Source: an uncultured bacterium (GTDB lineage: Bacteria > Omnitrophota > Omnitrophia > Omnitrophales > Aquincolibacteriaceae). From it: DNA of 64,000 nucleotides. Each line of letters begins with the position of its first letter. Position 1 is the stretch's first letter. Positions 32,948 through 42,314 of the stretch are shown here, piece after piece. The stretch covers positions 3,977-67,976 of the forward strand of contig CAZDVO010000001.1 in NCBI GenBank assembly GCA_964508905.1. The letters are read 5' to 3'. The notes under the pieces are model-generated. The model searched no databases. It was not told the DNA's origin and was given only the letters and a program-made list of their open reading frames with translations. The position numbers and the translations under genes are program-made.

Positions 32948-33685
32948 CTATCGTTTCACCGCGGAAGCGGAAAAGCTCCCCAGGATCTTGTCGACCTGGA
33001 TGCGTTCCCGGAAAAGCTCCTTCAATTTTCCGAACTGGCAATTATCGATATGAAGCCCTTCCACGTCCGGCAGGCTTCCGAGAATAGGCACTCCCGAGAG
33101 GTCGTGGATCACCTTGGGATTCGTGAGCTCGGAAAGAGAGTAATTGGTGACCGCGACCCGGTTAAAGATAATGCCGCGCACCTCAAGCCCCCGGATCATC
33201 GCCGCATCCACCGTCAAGAGCGTGTGGTTGATCGCGCCGAGGCCCGCGTAGGAAACGATCACGAGCGGCAGCCCCATATCACGGATGAGATTCGCGACGT
33301 AATAATCTTTTTTAAGAGGGACCATCAGCCCGCCGATCCCTTCGACGATCATGAAATCATAATGTTTCTGGAGCTGGCGATAACTCTTGAGGATGCCCTG
33401 GACATCGACTTCCTTTTTTTCAAGCATCGCCGCCACGTTCGGCGAAAGCGGGTTGCGAAAACGTGAGGGGCTTGAGAGGGGCGGGTATTCGTTCTCGGCG
33501 GCTTCCAGGAGAAAAGCCGCGTCCGTGGAGATCAGCCGTTCCTCGGTCCCGTGACAGCCGGTCGCGACGGGTTTCATGACCCCGACCTTCATCCCCCGTT
33601 CTCGGAGCACCAGCGCGAGGCCGGCGGAGATCACCGTTTTCCCGACATCCGTATCCGTCCCCGTAATAAAGATCCCGGCTTTCAT
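32948..33685 (-). CDS. bioD: Dethiobiotin synthetase
   Basis: MKAGIFITGTDTDVGKTVISAGLAL (P-loop) ...EGIGGLMVPL... The start is taken at the internal ATG (MKAGIF). Confidence 0.8.
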   Translation of the reverse strand: MKAGIFITGTDTDVGKTVISAGLALVLRERGMKVGVMKPVATGCHGTEERLISTDAAFLLEAAENEYPPLSSPSRFRNPLSPNVAAMLEKKEVDVQGILKSYRQLQKHYDFMIVEGIGGLMVPLKKDYYVANLIRDMGLPLVIVSYAGLGAINHTLLTVDAAMIRGLEVRGIIFNRVAVTNYSLSELTNPKVIHDLSGVPILGSLPDVEGLHIDNCQFGKLKELFRERIQVDKILGSFSASAVKR

Positions 33686-33785
33686 GGCTTCCTCTGGAGG
33701 CAGAATGAAAGATGGAGAATAGGGAATGGAGAAAAACAGGCTGCGCCATCCGCCATCCTCCATCCGCTGCCCATAACTTCCGTTT

Positions 33786-35234
33786 TCATTCCGTCACCTC
33801 TTGGATCGATTCGTAAGTGATCTCAAGCAACTGTTCCAACTGCCGTTCCGTCATCCCAAGCGGCGGCATCAACACGATCACCGGCCCGAGCGGCCGCAGG
33901 ATCGCGCCTTTTTTCCGCGCGCGTTCGATCACCTGAACGCCGATCTTCTCCTCGGGAGCGAACTCCGCTTTCGTTTTTTTGTCACGGACGAGTTCAATGC
34001 CTGTCATGAGCCCAACCCGGCGGATATCCCCCACGCAGGAAAGCGCGTGAAAGGATTCAAGCCTTTTGCCTAAAAGCGCGATCCGGGGCTGGAGCTTCTC
34101 GATCGTCCGGTCTTTCTTAAAAAGATCCAGCGTCGCCAACGCCGCCGCGCATGCCAACGGATTCGCCGTGTAAGTGTGCCCGTGGAAGAAGGTCTTGAAC
34201 TCTTCGTATCGGCCGAGAAAAGCCTCATACACCGCTTCGCTCGTAAGCGTCGCGGCCAGCGGCAGATAACCGCCCGTCAGGCCTTTGGCGACCGCCATAA
34301 TGTCCGGCACGACACCTTCGTGTTCCGCGGCGAACATCTTGCCCGTCCGCCCGAATCCCGTCGCGACCTCATCAAAAATGAGGAGCGTATTATACTTTCG
34401 CGTCAATTCCCTCGCACGGGAAATATAACCTTCCGGCTGGTCGATCATCCCCGCGGCCCCCTGCATCAGGGGTTCCATCACGAACGCGGCCAGCTCGTCC
34501 TGATTCTCGCGCAACACCTTCTCCATCGCGTCCAAGGATTCTCTCTTCACTTGTTCCGGATCGTCACCAGTCTCCCACCGGTAACGGTACGGCGACGGAA
34601 CGGCGAGCGTTTCAAAAAGAAGTGGCTTGTAGATCTGATGGAAAAGATCGATCCCGCCCATACTGACCGAGCCGATCGTGTCGCCGTGATAGGCGTTCGT
34701 GAGGCGGGCGAATTTCTTTTTCCGCGGTTGGCCTTTCTGCTGCCAATACTGGTACGCGATCTTCACCGCGATCTCCATCGCCTCGGACCCGGAATCGGAA
34801 TAAAAAACGCGGGTGAGACAATGCTTTTTGTCATCCTGAGGGTTTTTCCCGTCATGCTGAGCGAAGCGAAGCATCTCGCTCGGAGATTCTTCGGGCTTTG
34901 CCCTCAGAATGACGTCGCTGTTACCCGGCGCGATCGCGATCAATTGCTCGGAGAGCTCGATCGCTGTCGGGTGAGAAAGGCCGAGGAATGTCGTATGCGC
35001 GATCTTGCCGAGCTGTTTTTTAACGGCCTTATCGATCGCGGGAACCCGATGCCCGAACACATTGCACCAGAGGGACGACACCCCGTCCAGGTACCGCCGC
35101 CCGTCCGTATCGATCAGGTAACAGCCTTCCCCTTTTTCAATGACGGGAAAATCCTCTGCCTGCCAGTCCCGCATCTGCGTAAACGGATGCCAGATGTATT
35201 TTCTATCTTTCGCGACAAGTTCGTTGGTATTCAT
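33786..35234 (-). CDS. bioA: Adenosylmethionine-8-amino-7-oxononanoate aminotransferase, carrying an in-frame insert
   Basis: A class-III aminotransferase (...FYSDSGSEAMEIAVKIAYQYW...IFDEVATGFGRTGKMFA...). An insert of about 30 aa (SDVILRAKPEESPSEMLRFAQHDGKNPQDDKKHC) precedes the conserved RVFYSDSGS block. Confidence 0.85.
   Translation of the reverse strand: MNTNELVAKDRKYIWHPFTQMRDWQAEDFPVIEKGEGCYLIDTDGRRYLDGVSSLWCNVFGHRVPAIDKAVKKQLGKIAHTTFLGLSHPTAIELSEQLIAIAPGNSDVILRAKPEESPSEMLRFAQHDGKNPQDDKKHCLTRVFYSDSGSEAMEIAVKIAYQYWQQKGQPRKKKFARLTNAYHGDTIGSVSMGGIDLFHQIYKPLLFETLAVPSPYRYRWETGDDPEQVKRESLDAMEKVLRENQDELAAFVMEPLMQGAAGMIDQPEGYISRARELTRKYNTLLIFDEVATGFGRTGKMFAAEHEGVVPDIMAVAKGLTGGYLPLAATLTSEAVYEAFLGRYEEFKTFFHGHTYTANPLACAAALATLDLFKKDRTIEKLQPRIALLGKRLESFHALSCVGDIRRVGLMTGIELVRDKKTKAEFAPEEKIGVQVIERARKKGAILRPLGPVIVLMPPLGMTERQLEQLLEITYESIQEVTE
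34818..34920. repeat. In-frame palindromic insert inside bioA
   Basis: GTCATCCTGAGGG ... CCCTCAGAATGAC (13 bp, one mismatch) encloses GAGCGAAGCGAAGCATCTCGCTC with inner GAGCGA/TCGCTC arms. The insert encodes residues absent from BioA homologues. Confidence 0.5.
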
Positions 35235-35329
35235 AAATCCTCTGGGATCGATGTGAACGAGCGCCTATATTAGCGCATCGTCGCCAGGAAGGGAATCTCT
35301 CCCGTGAAAACCGCAGAGGATCGGTGAGG

Positions 35330-35878
35330 CTAATCCTTCACGCGGACGGCGAATCCTTTTTGGAGAAGTTCGTTATTGAGGTAGGCCTGCGCTCCGTCCT
35401 TCCCTGTATAGAAAATATCCGCCACGTACCGGCCGTATTTGTCGTCGGAGGGCGTGGTCTTGAGAAGGATCCCGGCGCCCACGGGAAGGACCTTTTGAAC
35501 AAAACGTTTCGCGGCCTCCCCTTCGGGGCTCCCCAGCTCGGGACAATCGATGCCGCGAAGCCGGAGTTTTTCGCGGACCTGGGTGCCGAATCCCACATCG
35601 ATCACGGCCCAAAGCGTATCGCCGTCGATCACGCGCTCGACCACCGCTTCATAAACGTACGAAGGTTTGGCGGTAAGCGTCACGCCTTTCAACTCCGCGG
35701 CACCGACCGAACGGTAAACGCAAAACCCGCAATCGACGGCACCCCGCTCAGTCTTTTGATACGTGTGGAGCGTCAGATCTTGGGGCGGCGTCAAAAGCTC
35801 GGCCGGTTTTTTTATTTCCGATGTTCCGGCAAGATTCTCCGCGACCGCGGCTCCTTCAGGAGCTGTATTTTCCGCCAA
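35330..35878 (-). CDS. Staphylococcal-nuclease (thermonuclease/SNase)-like nuclease
   Basis: ...VIDGDTLWAVIDVGFGTQVREKLRLRGIDCPE...DDKYGRYVADIF...NNELLQKGFA follows the SNase pattern (DGDT...RL.GIDaPE...RYGR...GlA). Confidence 0.6.
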   Translation of the reverse strand: MAENTAPEGAAVAENLAGTSEIKKPAELLTPPQDLTLHTYQKTERGAVDCGFCVYRSVGAAELKGVTLTAKPSYVYEAVVERVIDGDTLWAVIDVGFGTQVREKLRLRGIDCPELGSPEGEAAKRFVQKVLPVGAGILLKTTPSDDKYGRYVADIFYTGKDGAQAYLNNELLQKGFAVRVKD

Positions 35879-35921
35879 CGACTGGAAAATCCGACCAAAT
35901 TAAAGCTATAGTTATTCTCTA

Positions 35922-36051
35922 TCTATTTTTTTATACCGTATCGGGTATAAAATTCATTGCTGACAATAAATATATACCCTATAAGGTATATATTTAAATT
36001 TAATATACCCTTTAGGGTATATATTAATATTTATTTGATTAAACTATACCC
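35922..36051. promoter_or_regulatory. Array of four 18-bp palindromic operators (TATACC-N6-GGTATA) upstream of hipB
   Basis: tataccgtatcgggtata (35922-35939), tataccctataaggtata (35963-35980), tataccctttagggtata (35993-36010) and tataccctttatggtata (36034-36051), with spacings of 41, 30 and 41 bp. This parallels the four TATCC-N8-GGATA HipB operators in E. coli hipBA. Confidence 0.65.
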
Positions 36052-36073
36052 TTTATGGTATAGTTTTGTTGCT

Positions 36074-36301
36074 ATGGAACCTATAGGGAAACAAATCCAG
36101 GCATTGCGGAAGGAAGCGAATCTGACTCAAAAAGAATTCGCCAGGCGCGTGGGGGTGGGGTTGCGCTTTGTCCGCGATCTTGAGCAAGGTAAATCAAGCG
36201 TGCGCCTGGACAAAGTCGATCAAGTCCTCGAATTCCTTGGGCATCATTTGGAAATCGTTTCAGACCATGAGCCAAAAAATATTCCGGACAGCAAAAATTA
36301 A
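36074..36301 (+). CDS. hipB: HipB-like XRE-family HTH antitoxin
   Basis: MEPIGKQIQALRKEANLTQKEFARRVGVGLRFVRDLEQGKSSVRLDKVDQVLEFLG is an XRE/Cro HTH. Start at the ATG at 36074; the ORF-track start at 35957 would read through the operator array. Confidence 0.7.
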   Translation: MEPIGKQIQALRKEANLTQKEFARRVGVGLRFVRDLEQGKSSVRLDKVDQVLEFLGHHLEIVSDHEPKNIPDSKN

Positions 36302-36596
36302 TTATCAAGGACGGCTTGCCGGCCTTTTATCCGAAACAGAAAAAGGCTATCGCTTTGTCTACGATCCAAATTATGTACAGAATGGCGGGAAGCCTATTTC
36401 TGTTTCGCTGCCATTGCGGCCGGAACCTTATGAATCAGAAAAACTTTTCAGTTTCTTTGAAGGCCTTTTAGCGGAAGGGTGGTACCGGGACATTATGTGC
36501 GCGGTCGCTAAAGTTGACACCCGAGATTCCTTTGGCCTTTTACTTGCCGCGACAGGTGACACCATCGGAGCCGTCACGATCCAAAAGCCAGAATAA
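36267..36596 (+). CDS. hipS: HipS-like protein (stand-alone HipA N-terminal subdomain)
   Basis: MSQKIFRTAKINYQGRLAGLL...ISVSLPLRPE...FFEGLLAEGW...FGLLLAATGDTIGAV aligns with HipA N-subdomain 1 (LSLSLPL...FFDNLLPEG...FALLAHAGRECAGAL). Overlaps hipB by 35 bp. Confidence 0.7.
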   Translation: MSQKIFRTAKINYQGRLAGLLSETEKGYRFVYDPNYVQNGGKPISVSLPLRPEPYESEKLFSFFEGLLAEGWYRDIMCAVAKVDTRDSFGLLLAATGDTIGAVTIQKPE

Positions 36597-36598
36597 CT

Positions 36599-37459
36599 AT
36601 GGACCCAAAATTTTTGAAAGCGCTATTCGGAATAAGCGAGCTTCCTACCATATCTTTCTCTTCAGAGGATATTCCGCTCAAAGCCCAGGATATGGCTGAT
36701 GCGAAGCTGTCCATTTCGGGTGTTCAGCCCAAACTTTCTCTTAAAATGGATAAACAACGGAAAGAGCTTGTGCTCGCTCCGACGGGCGGAGAATATATTT
36801 TCAAACCGCAAACGCCGGCGTTCCCGCATATTCCGGAAAATGAAAACTGCTGCATGGATATTGCGCAAACCTTTAACATTGAGGTGCCGCCTCATTGCCT
36901 TCTCAAGCTTAAGGACGGAACTTTGGGCTATGTCGTGAAACGATTTGACCGCCAAGGCGAAGAGAAGGTCCATCAAGAGGATTTTTATCAAATTCTAGAA
37001 AAAACCGATAAATATCTCGGCTCATTGGAGCAGATCGGAAAAAAATTAAAAGAGATCTCGGCTGTTCCCGGCCTTGATATTCAACTGTTCTTCGAACGCG
37101 TCGTGTTAAACTTCCTTCTTGGAAATGGAGACGCTCATTTTAAGAACTTTTCCGTTTCTCATCGCGCGGAGGGGGTCCGTCTCTCGCCGGCCTACGATAT
37201 CGTTTCCTCAAAACTGGTTCTTCCAAAAGAAGAAGATTCGGCGCTGACTCTCAACGGCAAAAAGAACCGTATCACCCGTAACGATCTTGATGCGTTTGCC
37301 GAGAACTTAAAGATCCCGCAAAAGATCCGCTATGAAAAATTCGCGGGCAAAACAGACTTGATCGAGCAATTCATCCGGTCAAGCCAGCTACCGCAAGATT
37401 TCAAATCACGATTTGTCGAGATCGTCCTCTCCCGCTACGAACGCCTTAAGATCGCTTAA
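36599..37459 (+). CDS. hipT: HipT-like Ser/Thr kinase toxin (HipA kinase core lacking N-subdomain 1)
   Basis: SISGVQPKLS; catalytic motif GNGDAHFKNFS; ...SPAYDIVSS... The ATG lies 2 nt after the hipS stop, in a different frame. Confidence 0.75.
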   Translation: MDPKFLKALFGISELPTISFSSEDIPLKAQDMADAKLSISGVQPKLSLKMDKQRKELVLAPTGGEYIFKPQTPAFPHIPENENCCMDIAQTFNIEVPPHCLLKLKDGTLGYVVKRFDRQGEEKVHQEDFYQILEKTDKYLGSLEQIGKKLKEISAVPGLDIQLFFERVVLNFLLGNGDAHFKNFSVSHRAEGVRLSPAYDIVSSKLVLPKEEDSALTLNGKKNRITRNDLDAFAENLKIPQKIRYEKFAGKTDLIEQFIRSSQLPQDFKSRFVEIVLSRYERLKIA

Positions 37460-37550
37460 AACAGCCTTTTGCGCATTGCTTTAAGGCTGCCCCCCCTTAA
37501 TTCTTTACATGAAATACGGCTTCTAAACCATATCTCCTGTCAGGAATTTA

Positions 37551-37874
37551 TTGTGGCGGGATCTTTTCAGGGAGATCAAAAACCGGATCCATCAGGCGCA
37601 GTATCAGGACCTCCGGGCCGTCAACCGGGAACTTGTCTCTCTTGATTGGGATATTGGTTCGAAACTTTACGAAAAGATCGAAAACTCCGGAAAGGGCCAA
37701 GGGGTCATCAAAAAGCTGGCCCAAGACCTCCGGGCTGTTTTCCCGGGCAAGCGGGGATTTTCAAGCAGAAATCTGTGGGAAATGAAAAAGCTATATGCCA
37801 CTTATAAAACACGCCTTATCGATACCGGGCTTCTCAAAAGCAAACTACATTCACTTCCGGCCCCCCGGCTTTGA
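37551..37874 (+). pseudogene. Truncated DUF1016 (YhcG-like PD-(D/E)xK nuclease) N-terminal fragment
   Basis: ...IKNRIHQAQYQDLRAVNRELVSLDWDIGSKLYEKIENSGKGQGVIKKLAQDLRAVFPGKRGFSSRNLWEMKKLYATY matches the first ~100 aa of YhcG/DUF1016 proteins (full length about 340 aa), then terminates. Non-ATG start. Confidence 0.5.
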
Positions 37875-37965
37875 ACTCTACCAAGAAATGCGATGAGCGG
37901 AAAACGAGCAAACCCGCCGCACTGAGCGCCTCTTAAAAATTCATCTGCAGTGGAGTTCGGGTCGG

Positions 37966-39108
37966 TTACGCAATCGCGCGGAAGGCCTGGAGAAGGGCCT
38001 GGATGTCTTCGGCGGTATGCGCGGCAGAGACGGTGATGCGGAGGCGGGCTTTGCCCTTGGGCACGGTCGGGTAGCGGACCGCCGGGATAAAGAGCCCCTG
38101 GCCGAGCAGTTTTTCGAACGCCTCCATCGCTTTCTTTTCATCGCCCAGGATCACGGGGAGCACCGCGGATCCGGGCTGCGCCAGATGAAAGCCGAGCTTC
38201 GTGAGCCCCTGATACACTTCCCGGATATTCGCCCAGAGCCTTTCGATCAGGGCGGGGTCTTCTTCGATCACGCAAAAAGCTTCGCGCGCCGTTTCGCAGA
38301 GGACCGGAGGCAGGGCCGTCGCGAAAATGAACGGCCGGGCAAAATTCATCAGAAGATCGATCAAGCTTTGATCCGCGGCGACAAAGCCGCCCAATCCCCC
38401 GATCGCCTTGGAGAGCGTGCCCATGATCAGATCAATGCCTTCGGAGTAGCTTGAAGTCGCACCGGGGCTTCCCTTGGGAAAGACGCCCGTGCCGTGCGCG
38501 TCGTCCACGACAAGCAACGCCCCGTACTTTGCTTTGATCCGGATCAGTTCGTTCAGGTCCGCGCGGTCCCCGTCCATCCCGAACACGTTCTCCGTCACTA
38601 CGAGCTTACGAGGGGCCTTTGATCTTTTAAGGATCTCCTCGCATCGGGCGTAATGCTTGTGAGGGAAAACGCGGATCTCGGCGCCGGAAAGCCGCGCGCC
38701 GTCGATCAGGGACGCGTGGCAGAGCTTATCCATGACGATGACGTCGCCTTTCCCCGCGAAAGAAGAAAGGATGCCGAGATTGGCGAGGAATCCGGACCCG
38801 AACACGAGCGCGCTGTCCTTGTGTTTGAAGGCGGCGATCTTTTTTTCAAGGGACGCGTGCGCCTCCGTGGTCCCGGAGATCAGCCGCGCCGAACGCGCGC
38901 CGATCCCGTACTGGTCGATCGCCTTGTGCGCCGCCGCGATCAACCGCGGATGCCGGCTCATGCCCAGATAGTCGTTGCCGCAGAAGAGGATCATCTTCCG
39001 GCCTTCAAAAACGGCGCGGGTGCCCTCGTGTTCTTCCAGAACGCGGAGGGAGCGGTAGAGATGCTTTTCCTTGAGCCTCTCTAATTCTTTTTTTACATCG
39101 TTCATCAT
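37966..39108 (-). CDS. bioF: 8-amino-7-oxononanoate synthase (class-II PLP acyltransferase; a Kbl-type alternative is not excluded)
   Basis: ...GSGFLANLGILSS...DKLCHASLIDGARLS...GTLSKAIGGLGGFVAAD... The biotin-operon context favours BioF. Confidence 0.7.
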   Translation of the reverse strand: MMNDVKKELERLKEKHLYRSLRVLEEHEGTRAVFEGRKMILFCGNDYLGMSRHPRLIAAAHKAIDQYGIGARSARLISGTTEAHASLEKKIAAFKHKDSALVFGSGFLANLGILSSFAGKGDVIVMDKLCHASLIDGARLSGAEIRVFPHKHYARCEEILKRSKAPRKLVVTENVFGMDGDRADLNELIRIKAKYGALLVVDDAHGTGVFPKGSPGATSSYSEGIDLIMGTLSKAIGGLGGFVAADQSLIDLLMNFARPFIFATALPPVLCETAREAFCVIEEDPALIERLWANIREVYQGLTKLGFHLAQPGSAVLPVILGDEKKAMEAFEKLLGQGLFIPAVRYPTVPKGKARLRITVSAAHTAEDIQALLQAFRAIA

Positions 39109-41285: not shown

Positions 41286-42314
41286 CTAGGAGGTCTTACC
41301 GCAGCCCGAGGCGCAGCCGCAGTGTTCTTGAGGCAGGATCAGAGGGAACCCGCTCCTCTCCAGCATACCGAGATCTTCCTGAAGAGGATTACCGCTAGTC
41401 GTGAGATAACCGCCGACCACAAATCCGTTCACCCCGCCGCGCAGGGCTTTTTCCTGGAAATAAACGCCGAGATTCAGCTCCCGCCCGCCCGCGAGTTTGA
41501 TATTGGCTTTCGGATGGATCAGGCGATAGATCGCGATCGTCTTAACGACGTCTTCCGGATCGATCGCCGGCCGGCCCTGAAGCGGTGTCCCCGGCCTCGG
41601 ATTGAGGATATTGACCGGCAGACAATGAAGATGGTACGGCTTGAGCTCGAACGCCAGTTTCACCCGATCGGCCGTGGTCTCCCCCATCCCGAAGATCCCG
41701 CCGGAGCAAACTTCCACGTCGTTCGCTTTCAAAAAATTCAGTGTTTCCATCCGCTCGTCGTAGGTATGCGTGGAAACGATCTCGGGATAGAACTCCCGCG
41801 AACATTGGAGATTGTGATTAAAGCGCCGCATGCCGGCTTCCCGGAGCTTCTGGATCTGTTCCGCGGTCAGATTCCCAAGCGATCCGTCGAGGCGAAGCTT
41901 TGTTTCCTTGGAAAGCAGTTGGAAGGTCGCGAGCACCTGTTTGAATTCAGCGTCGTTCAGCGTTTCACCGCTTGTGACCACACAGAAACTTTGAACCCCA
42001 TTGGCCTCACAGGCCTTCGCTTGGGTCAACACTTCGTCGGGTTGCATCAGCGGGTAGCGTTTCACACCCGTTTTGTAATGCGCGGACTGGGAACAAAAAC
42101 CGCAGTCCTCAGAACACAGGTAACTTTTGGCGTTCACGAGAGAACAAAGATCGGGAGTGGAGGAGCGGTAGTGAAGCGTGATCTCATGCGCCGCGTCAAG
42201 CAACTGATCGATCATGACGGGATCTCGAAGTTCGGCGAGGCGCATTGCTTCGTCAAAAGTGATCTCGCCGCCCGCGAGGACGCGGGACTTGAGCTCTTGA
42301 ATGAAGGCTTTCAT
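41286..42314 (-). CDS. bioB: Biotin synthase (radical SAM)
   Basis: CSEDCGFCSQS (CxxxCxxC) ...GNLTAEQIQKLREAGMRRFNHNLQ...CSGGIFGMGET... Confidence 0.8.
   Translation of the reverse strand: MKAFIQELKSRVLAGGEITFDEAMRLAELRDPVMIDQLLDAAHEITLHYRSSTPDLCSLVNAKSYLCSEDCGFCSQSAHYKTGVKRYPLMQPDEVLTQAKACEANGVQSFCVVTSGETLNDAEFKQVLATFQLLSKETKLRLDGSLGNLTAEQIQKLREAGMRRFNHNLQCSREFYPEIVSTHTYDERMETLNFLKANDVEVCSGGIFGMGETTADRVKLAFELKPYHLHCLPVNILNPRPGTPLQGRPAIDPEDVVKTIAIYRLIHPKANIKLAGGRELNLGVYFQEKALRGGVNGFVVGGYLTTSGNPLQEDLGMLERSGFPLILPQEHCGCASGCGKTS

Follow-up and report, generated by a model that had tools for sequence, protein, structure and literature searches.

The 64,000-nt stretch of DNA analysed here (the window, to whose numbering all coordinates refer) contains a cassette of three plus-strand genes, hipB, hipS and hipT. 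We conclude that this locus is very probably a HipBST toxin-antitoxin operon, tripartite and intact, that belongs to the Legionella-type subclade, was acquired horizontally and was recently inserted between the biotin genes bioF and bioA in an Omnitrophota-like genome. The initial annotation of the sequence had proposed a HipBST-type module, and this is supported by the B-S-T gene order, a stand-alone HipS, a kinase core with intact catalytic residues, and HipBST structures as the best solved relatives. The closest solved relatives are components of HipBST and not HipA or the HipB of HipBA. The three genes are as follows.

36074-36301, plus strand: hipB, a 75-aa XRE/Cro-type helix-turn-helix (HTH) protein, the presumed operator-binding autorepressor
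36267-36596, plus strand: hipS, a 109-aa homologue of HipA N-subdomain 1, the presumed antitoxin
36599-37459, plus strand: hipT, a 286-aa HipA-family Ser/Thr kinase core, the presumed toxin

Gene order and coding sequences

Open reading frames (ORFs) of 75, 109 and 286 aa had been described on the plus strand, and all three were found with those lengths. The 3' end of hipB overlaps the start of hipS by 35 nt. The start of hipT had been placed 2 nt past the hipS stop in another frame, which was confirmed by the TAA at 36594-36596 and the ATG at 36599. The peptide motifs quoted for the three proteins were likewise all present in the translations, and the profile searches that had been proposed matched HTH_3, Couple_hipA and HipA_C on HipB, HipS and HipT, respectively. 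Co-directional, tightly spaced genes in the order hipB-hipS-hipT are the arrangement of the HipBST family. A scan of one genome per species yielded 80 related hipBST loci, mostly from metagenome-assembled genomes of Omnitrophota; a few were labelled Planctomycetes, Elusimicrobia, Aminicenantes, Firestonebacteria, Armatimonadota, Verrucomicrobia and others. The same gene order was found in every related locus with enough upstream DNA.

Relationships of HipT, HipS and HipB

HipT matched HipA_C with an E value of 1.9e-47 over residues 37-241 of 286 and carried no Couple_hipA domain. When HipT was compared with all Protein Data Bank (PDB) sequences, the best match was HipT of L. pneumophila (8ezr/7vkb, E 2.5e-41, 145 bits), which was aligned over nearly the full length, followed by HipT of E. 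coli O127 (7ab3, E 4e-17, 65.6 bits) and then by HipA proteins (7e-8 to 2e-4). A Foldseek search of the PDB with an AlphaFold2 model of HipT returned L. pneumophila HipT first, then E. coli HipT, HipA and CtkA; the TM-scores were approximately 0.4 and the root-mean-square deviation was approximately 13 Å, so this result was used as a ranking alone and not as structural evidence. The ranking agrees with the sequence results.

The Gly-rich loop S38-I-S40-GVQPK lies near the N-terminus of HipT (residues 38-45), the catalytic residues D178 and N183 lie in GNGD178AHFKN183, and the Mg-binding residue D200 lies in PAYD200. In the alignment, D178, D200 and S38 stand opposite D197, D219 and S54 of L. 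pneumophila HipT, where D197 and D219 are the ATP-coordination and Mg-binding residues and S54 is the P-loop serine, all of them either mutated or annotated in the Legionella protein (Lin et al., PMC10653801). Conservation was evaluated in 25 homologues with 64-87% identity. S38, I39, S40, G41, Q43, P44 and K45 of the loop were invariant in 25/25, as were G175, N176, G177, D178, H180, N183, P197, A198, Y199 and D200. The catalytic Asp and Asn, on which the initial annotation had made the kinase assignment depend, are therefore both present and invariant.

HipS matched Couple_hipA with an E value of 1.5e-24 over residues 10-105 of 109. Its solved relatives in the PDB are H. influenzae HI_0666 (7czo, 2.1e-16, the top-scoring one), L. 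pneumophila HipS (7vkb_B, 3.3e-14) and E. coli O127 HipS (7ab3_B, 7.2e-11), and its match to the N-terminus of HipA is far weaker (E 1.3e-5). Glu70-Gly71-Trp72 of HipS aligns with Glu63-Gly64-Trp65 of E. coli HipS, and this Glu-Gly-Trp motif is kept in 69/76 homologues, which are 104-117 aa in length. In E. coli HipS, Trp65 wedges into the pocket that the Gly-rich loop leaves when ejected, and the antitoxin cannot function without it (PMC10627512).

HipB matched HTH_3 (E 4.5e-11) and exceeded the cut-off of TIGR03070 couple_hipB (75.6 bits, cut-off 71.65). The best solved relative is L. pneumophila HipB (8ezt, 76 aa, E 6.4e-8); no O127 HipB chain was found among the matches of HipB to the PDB at E values up to 0.1. 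Most positions of the HTH region LTQxEFAxRxGVGLRF.R.LEQGK, in which GVGLRF is the recognition region, are at least 90% conserved in 74 homologues, which is consistent with a conserved DNA target.

Two described groups of HipBST systems can be compared with the locus. The first is that of L. pneumophila (lpg2368-lpg2370; 8ezr, 8ezs, 8ezt, 7vkb, 7vkc and 7wcf; Lin et al. 2023 mBio PMC10653801; Zhen et al. 2022 PMC9325769), and the second comprises E. coli O127:H6 (7ab3, 7ab4 and 7ab5; Vang Nielsen 2019 PMC6581861; Baerentsen 2023 PMC10627512) and H. influenzae HI0665/HI0666 (7czo). The locus shares with L. pneumophila the B-S-T order, the closest solved HipT and HipB, and a HipB of nearly equal length (75 versus 76 aa). 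It differs in that HipS has Trp72 in place of Ile65/Met66, the HipT loop reads S-I-S in place of S-V-Q, HipT is approximately 26 aa shorter (286 versus 312 aa), and the gene junctions are a 35-nt overlap and a 2-nt gap rather than 4-bp overlaps; the host phylum and the genomic context also differ. The likeness to E. coli O127 lies in the tripartite organization, the Ser-Ile-Ser loop (Ser57 and Ser59, corresponding to S38 and S40) and the HipS Glu-Gly-Trp motif (E63 and W65, corresponding to E70 and W72). However, the E. coli O127 HipT is far more distant, with approximately 23% identity in the fold alignment and a length of 335-341 aa.

HipT and HipB are nearer to those of L. pneumophila than to those of E. 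coli O127, which places the locus in the Legionella-type subclade by scores and fold ranking rather than by a tree. The motif states of Legionella itself, namely a HipS lacking the Trp and an S-psi-Q loop, are not those observed here, where W72 and S-I-S agree with the E. coli type. The absent Trp and the S-psi-Q loop are features of Legionella itself and need not hold for the subclade as a whole.

Insertion into the biotin operon

The biotin cluster that flanks the cassette lies entirely on the minus strand and includes fabG-like and fabF-like genes; bioA, bioD, bioF and bioB exceed the NCBIfam cut-offs. The flanking and intervening features are as follows.

41286-42314, minus strand: bioB
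37966-39108, minus strand: bioF
37551-37874, plus strand: truncated DUF1016 (YhcG-type) gene, matching DUF1016_N (6.2e-21) over model positions 1-82 of 137
35330-35878, minus strand: staphylococcal nuclease (SNase)-family gene between hipB and bioA, 182 aa with a TTG start, matching PF00565 SNase (1.5e-8)
35235-37965: interruption block of 2731 bp between the bioA start (35234) and the bioF stop (37966)
33786-35234, minus strand: bioA
32948-33763, minus strand: bioD

The profiles of these flanking genes bear out the earlier description of a cassette on the opposite strand inside a biotin operon, and relatives with an empty site support its insertion. In metagenome loci whose bioF is 71-82% identical, the order bioB-fabG-fabF-bioF-bioA-bioD is kept. 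In five of these close relatives (L087, L091, L092, L093 and L095), bioF and bioA overlap or are at most approximately 30 nt apart, and in L087 the bioF stop and the bioA start share the sequence ATGA. Since bioF abuts bioA in these relatives, the 2731-bp block is an insertion. The GC content is 0.35-0.49 over approximately 35880-37950, compared with 0.55-0.63 in the flanks, and this low-GC segment spans the operator region, hipBST and the 107-aa ORF of the DUF1016 gene. Among the 80 hipBST loci, none showed a biotin, SNase or DUF1016 context, except in L066, where hipT has a distant homologue of SNase (38% identity) on its downstream side, and in L058, where there is a fabF-like gene. The context is therefore specific to this lineage, as is expected of a mobile cassette.

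The two accompanying genes differ in composition. The SNase gene is divergent from hipB, has a host-like GC content of 0.57-0.62, and is absent from the bioF-bioA interval of the 15 related loci checked; it may be a separate, older arrival. The 107-aa DUF1016 ORF has a GC content of 0.47-0.52 and corresponds to the N-terminal third of a DUF1016/YhcG-type protein, with a match over the N-terminal ~90 residues. It also matches the PADLOC defence candidate PDC-S02 (2.3e-29) over positions ~12-99 of models up to 357 long. Because its low GC content matches that of hipBST, this gene probably arrived together with hipBST and was later cut down.

The bioF-bioA junction is empty in the five relatives above and holds unrelated cargo in others, so it is variable in this lineage. 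The cargo includes a putative lipoprotein of approximately 393 aa (L090, L096 and L100), a membrane protein of approximately 100 aa (L090, L098 and L102), a 383-aa membrane protein (L102) and a duplicated 5' fragment of bioA (L098 and L099). Separately, the minus-strand bioA gene of the window carries an in-frame insertion of 34 aa (102 nt) at 34818-34925, encoding the peptide NSDVILRAKPEESPSEMLRFAQHDGKNPQDDKKH. In the close homologues L098, L099 and L102 it is absent, with a clean gap of 34 residues in its place, and L088 carries another insert at this position. The insert, whose DNA contains an imperfect inverted repeat, GTCATTCTGAG...CTCAGCATGAC, occurs only once in the window and is reminiscent of small palindromic elements that enter genes without breaking the reading frame.

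The variable junction bears on an alternative role for the cassette. With the same anatomy, hipBST could serve abortive-infection phage defence instead of persistence or addiction, and the cassette could be a fragment of a defence island; we regard this as possible, but less likely than not. The match of the adjoining truncated gene to PDC-S02 points in this direction, as do weak matches of HipT and HipS to the candidate pair PDC-M03A/PDC-M03B (3.3e-10 and 4e-4), the different cargo at the junction in different relatives, and the occurrence of the hipBST module in unrelated contexts across the 80 loci. However, the PADLOC matches of HipT and HipS are weak, the PDC families are candidates only, and the other junction cargo (which includes the 393-aa putative lipoprotein and the small membrane proteins) is not recognisably defence-related. 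This alternative concerns the role and not the mechanism, and is compatible with the HipBST explanation.

Putative operator array and promoter

Upstream of hipB, the following palindromes and promoter-like elements were found; the distances in relatives are given from the hipB ATG.

35932-35949: operator O1, TATACCGTATCGGGTATA, an exact TATACC-N6-GGTATA match; counterpart at approximately -141 to -146 in close relatives
35973-35990: operator O2, TATACCCTATAAGGTATA, an exact match 41 bp from O1; counterpart at approximately -101 to -104 in relatives
36004-36021: operator O3, TATACCCTTTAGGGTATA, an exact match and a perfect 7-N4-7 palindrome, 31 bp from O2; counterpart at approximately -70 to -75 in relatives
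36045-36062: operator O4, TATACCCTTTATGGTATA, an exact match 41 bp from O3; counterpart at -28 to -34 in the close clade
36035-36064, plus strand: putative sigma-70-type hipBST promoter from a consensus scan, TTGATT, 18 nt, TG-TATAGT

Four TATACC-N6-GGTATA palindromes had been reported at this position, and all four proved to be exact. They had also been called evenly spaced, which is not the case: the start-to-start distances are 41, 31 and 41 bp, with gaps of 23, 13 and 23 bp. At no more than one mismatch, the 64-kb window contains these four sites only, compared with 0.00 expected from 100 shuffles. With the limit raised to 3 mismatches, neither hipB nor the rest of the window yielded a convincing extra or degenerate copy.

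The motif was then sought in 70 related loci, within the 260 nt that precede hipB, with at most 2 mismatches allowed over the 12 arm positions. The 18.2 kb upstream of hipB contained 193 sites, compared with 17 in the other 494 kb of these loci, which corresponds to an approximately 300-fold enrichment; two to four sites preceded hipB in 63/70 loci. As this enrichment upstream of hipB extends over several phyla, the motif travels with hipB whatever the host genome. The spacings between neighbouring sites are bimodal, at 31 bp (n=37, with 5 more at 30 or 32 bp) and 41-42 bp (n=52), and smaller peaks at 72-73 and 82-83 bp arise as sums of these spacings. Because 31 and 41 bp are equal to three and four helical turns, all sites are expected to lie on one face of the DNA. 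The consensus TATACCYTATARGGTATA reads TATACC-Y-TATA-R-GGTATA, so the entire 18-mer is palindromic; C5, C6 and G13 are conserved at 97-99% and G14 at 88%. In the window and its closest relatives, the sites lie at approximately -142, -101, -70 and -29 from the hipB ATG.

The putative promoter consists of a -35-like TTGATT at 36035-36040 and a TG-extended -10-like TATAGT at 36059-64, with O4 between them. O4 overlaps the promoter spacer and the -10 element, and its right arm supplies most of TATAGT. Most of the 14 close loci shown have a TTGnnn 3-6 nt upstream of the last operator together with a TATA(G/A/C)T right arm. The hipB ATG lies 9 nt past the -10 element and is not preceded by a Shine-Dalgarno sequence; with the ATG at this distance from the consensus positions, a near-leaderless hipBST mRNA is predicted. 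A sub-group among L007-L086 has its promoter-proximal site at approximately -55 to -58 with the variant right arm GTGATA (TATACCCGNNAGGTGATA) in place of GGTATA, which suggests a different promoter-operator overlap in that sub-clade.

The array had been said to mirror that of E. coli hipBA, whose operators have TATCC/GGATA arms. This remains a fair analogy, as four palindromic operators (putative ones in the window) lie upstream in both, along with an HTH HipB autorepressor (presumed in the window) and a kinase of the same fold family with the same catalytic motifs. The L. pneumophila hipBST array, with 18-bp sites and 6-nt arms, is nevertheless the closer precedent. Lin et al. 2023 described there, under the term of the first HipBST operators, three 18-nt sites with 6-nt inverted arms and 53-bp gaps, and HipB alone shifts this DNA in an electrophoretic mobility shift assay (EMSA) (PMC10653801). 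In Legionella, the predicted promoter is overlapped by O1, which lies 24 nt ahead of the start codon; the sites listed in the oligonucleotide table of that study are TTACTGCTATAACAGTAA (O1), TTACCGCCATAACAGTAA and TTACCGTGATAACAGTAA (PMC10653801).

The putative operators of the window share with these the 18-bp 6-N6-6 layout, a YTATAR-like centre (TTACTG-CTATAA-CAGTAA in Legionella O1, with an identical CTATAA centre in O2 of the window) and a promoter-proximal operator that overlaps the predicted promoter. The site periodicity is also similar, at approximately 71 bp in Legionella and 72 bp between alternate sites here (O1-O3 and O2-O4), which may or may not reflect common descent. In contrast, the arms are TATACC here and TTACTG or TTACCG in Legionella, and the four sites at 41/31/41 bp are symmetric, whereas two of the three Legionella sites with their 53-bp gaps are asymmetric. 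The Legionella-type operator motifs are absent upstream of the E. coli hipBST operon (Lin et al., PMC10653801). In E. coli hipBA, the gaps between the four operators are 10/21/10 bp (Wen et al. 2014, PMC4150777). The gaps thus alternate by approximately one helical turn in both arrays, with a short-long-short pattern in E. coli hipBA and a long-short-long pattern (23/13/23 bp) here. S. oneidensis hipBA has four GTGTA-N6-TACAC sites with 5-nt arms and equal 34-bp gaps, and the centre of the E. coli hipBA operator is 2 bp longer than that of S. oneidensis (PMC4150777).

The array may also be considered with respect to the neighbouring genes. A weak minus-strand sigma-70-like match, TTTAAA-18-TATATT, runs from 35998 to 35969 inside the array, overlaps O2, and points towards SNase-bioA-bioD. 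It agrees with the consensus at 9/12 positions and is the only promoter-like match upstream of SNase-bioA-bioD in 35150-36080. As the insertion cut an ancestral, translationally coupled bioF-bioA junction and the only promoter-like element upstream of SNase-bioA-bioD lies in the array, control of these genes by HipB is conceivable. A combined reading, in which the array is a divergent control region for SNase-bioA-bioD and the Omnitrophota-centred clade is at the same time a third HipBST subtype, is in our view improbable. The features that would define such a subtype are the shortest HipT (~286 aa), Legionella-like HipT and HipB combined with an E. coli-like HipS Trp and S-I-S loop, and four operator sites in a lattice whose period is 72 bp.

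It is very unlikely that the palindromes are not HipB operators at all, but rather a repeat resembling repetitive extragenic palindromic sequences or miniature inverted-repeat transposable elements, terminator hairpins for the upstream gene, or sites of an unrelated host regulator. The site at 36003-36022 does score as a terminator-like hairpin, the array lies in AT-rich intergenic DNA at the edge of the inserted block, and the operator role is deduced from sequence comparison. However, the motif occurs nowhere else in the window, its enrichment upstream of hipB in the 70 loci comes with fixed distances to the ATG and fixed spacings, the promoter-proximal palindrome overlaps a conserved -35/-10 pair, and Legionella HipB binds sites with the same 18-bp, 6-nt-arm layout in EMSA. 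The conservation of motif, position and spacing upstream of hipB across phyla strongly supports the palindromes as putative HipB operators.

hipS and hipT as separate genes

In 76 related loci, hipS and hipT overlap by up to 17 nt or are separated by up to 82 nt, with all three frame offsets represented, and the lengths of HipT fall mainly at 283-289 aa. At least 7194 HipT-like clusters were detected in the database at E values up to 1e-10, and the best 120 of these (63-100% identity) are mostly 284-290 aa in length. The exact HipT protein was found on contigs from six different sequencing runs; these independent assemblies are 100% identical to the window over the covered parts of the 2731-bp insert, including the hipS/hipT junction. 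Because the genes are separate in 76 loci with varied junctions, a separate hipS is the ancestral, maintained state in the clade, and the +1 frameshift considered in the initial annotation is excluded as the cause of the split. A single ~440-aa HipA that includes N-subdomain 1, with HipB as the antitoxin, characterizes hipBA, and its similarity to HipT and HipS is weak (E ~1e-5). A classical bicistronic HipBA was thus rejected as a candidate, since two ORFs separated by a stop codon and a frame change are present and this arrangement is conserved.

It is scarcely credible that hipS and hipT are the pseudogene halves of a full-length hipA broken by a frameshift, a nonsense mutation or a sequencing error: HipS and HipT together are colinear with HipA and their ORFs lie 2 nt apart in different frames, but a single recent lesion cannot yield junctions of -17 to +82 nt with three offsets, the six independent assemblies agree through the junction, HipT and HipS match their stand-alone counterparts (2.5e-41 and 2e-16) far better than HipA (~1e-5 to 7e-8 and 1.3e-5), and HipT-sized proteins form a large conserved family.

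Proposed mechanism

By analogy with the E. coli O127 and L. pneumophila homologues, free HipT kinase would phosphorylate an essential cellular protein, most plausibly an aminoacyl-tRNA synthetase, and thereby cause growth arrest. HipS, the separately encoded equivalent of N-subdomain 1, would bind HipT and hold the S38-I-S40 loop in an ejected, inactive state, with Trp72 probably wedging into the loop pocket like Trp65 of E. coli HipS. Dimeric HipB, alone or in a HipB2S2T2 complex, would bind the four 18-bp palindromes on one face of the DNA, and HipB may augment neutralisation in addition to repressing transcription. The promoter-proximal site would cover the spacer and the -10 element of TTGATT-18-TATAGT, so the hipBST transcript is predicted to be repressed on occupancy. 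The 35-nt overlap of hipB and hipS and the 2-nt gap between hipS and hipT suggest translational coupling.

Several points weigh against this account of the locus as an active HipBST operon. Kinase activity, toxicity, neutralisation by HipS and not by HipB, and binding of HipB to DNA are presumed from homologous systems. The AlphaFold2 model of HipT built from the 25-sequence alignment is poor (mean pLDDT 69, pTM 0.50) and does not strengthen the assignment on geometric grounds. The target of E. coli HipT is TrpS, but neither TrpS nor GltX gives rescue from the HipT of Legionella, which is the nearer relative, so TrpS should not be assumed to be the target here. Likewise, Legionella HipS functions without the Trp, having Ile/Met there, and the role suggested for W72 is drawn only by analogy from E. 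coli, whose system is more distant. The hipBST promoter is a 9/12 consensus match in AT-rich DNA, where four promoter-like matches were found in the region versus 2.9 expected. No convincing terminal inverted repeats or target-site duplication were found at the insertion, and an 8-nt sequence, AGGCGCTC, near both ends of the block is within chance.

Significance for the HipBST family

The locus is a clear addition to the described HipBST family and not a new kind of system, so the picture of the family is unchanged. The initial annotation considered such modules poorly surveyed outside Gammaproteobacteria, which is partly outdated, as Lin et al., who list 86 Legionella-type and 31 E. coli-type representatives, report the Legionella-type subclade to be widespread in other phyla (PMC10653801). 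No occurrences in Omnitrophota, Elusimicrobia or Planctomycetes were found in the supplements of Lin et al. 2023, including the portion of the largest table that was searched, and a full-text literature search for HipT or HipS with Omnitrophota returned nothing relevant. What is new is limited to a large Omnitrophota-centred clade, of which the papers searched make no mention, to the operator consensus and phasing of this clade, and to the documented case of a coupled biotin operon interrupted by an insertion.

Earlier work on HipBST concerns E. coli O127, H. influenzae and L. pneumophila. The present locus and its ~80 relatives show that, among uncultivated Omnitrophota and the candidate phyla neighbouring them, a compact, Legionella-like HipBST is common. 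The conserved consensus, with its fixed 31/41-bp phasing, could be used for predicting HipB regulons and for designing binding experiments. The natural variants, which combine Legionella-like HipT and HipB with an E. coli-like HipS Trp and a double-serine loop, are useful for questions of neutralisation mode and target choice. The locus also provides a clean case, backed by relatives with an empty site, in which a toxin-antitoxin cassette splits a biosynthetic operon whose genes are translationally coupled. If the improbable reading of the array as a divergent control region were true, the split biotin operon would have its distal half under HipB, and the expression of that half would be tied to the state of the toxin-antitoxin system.

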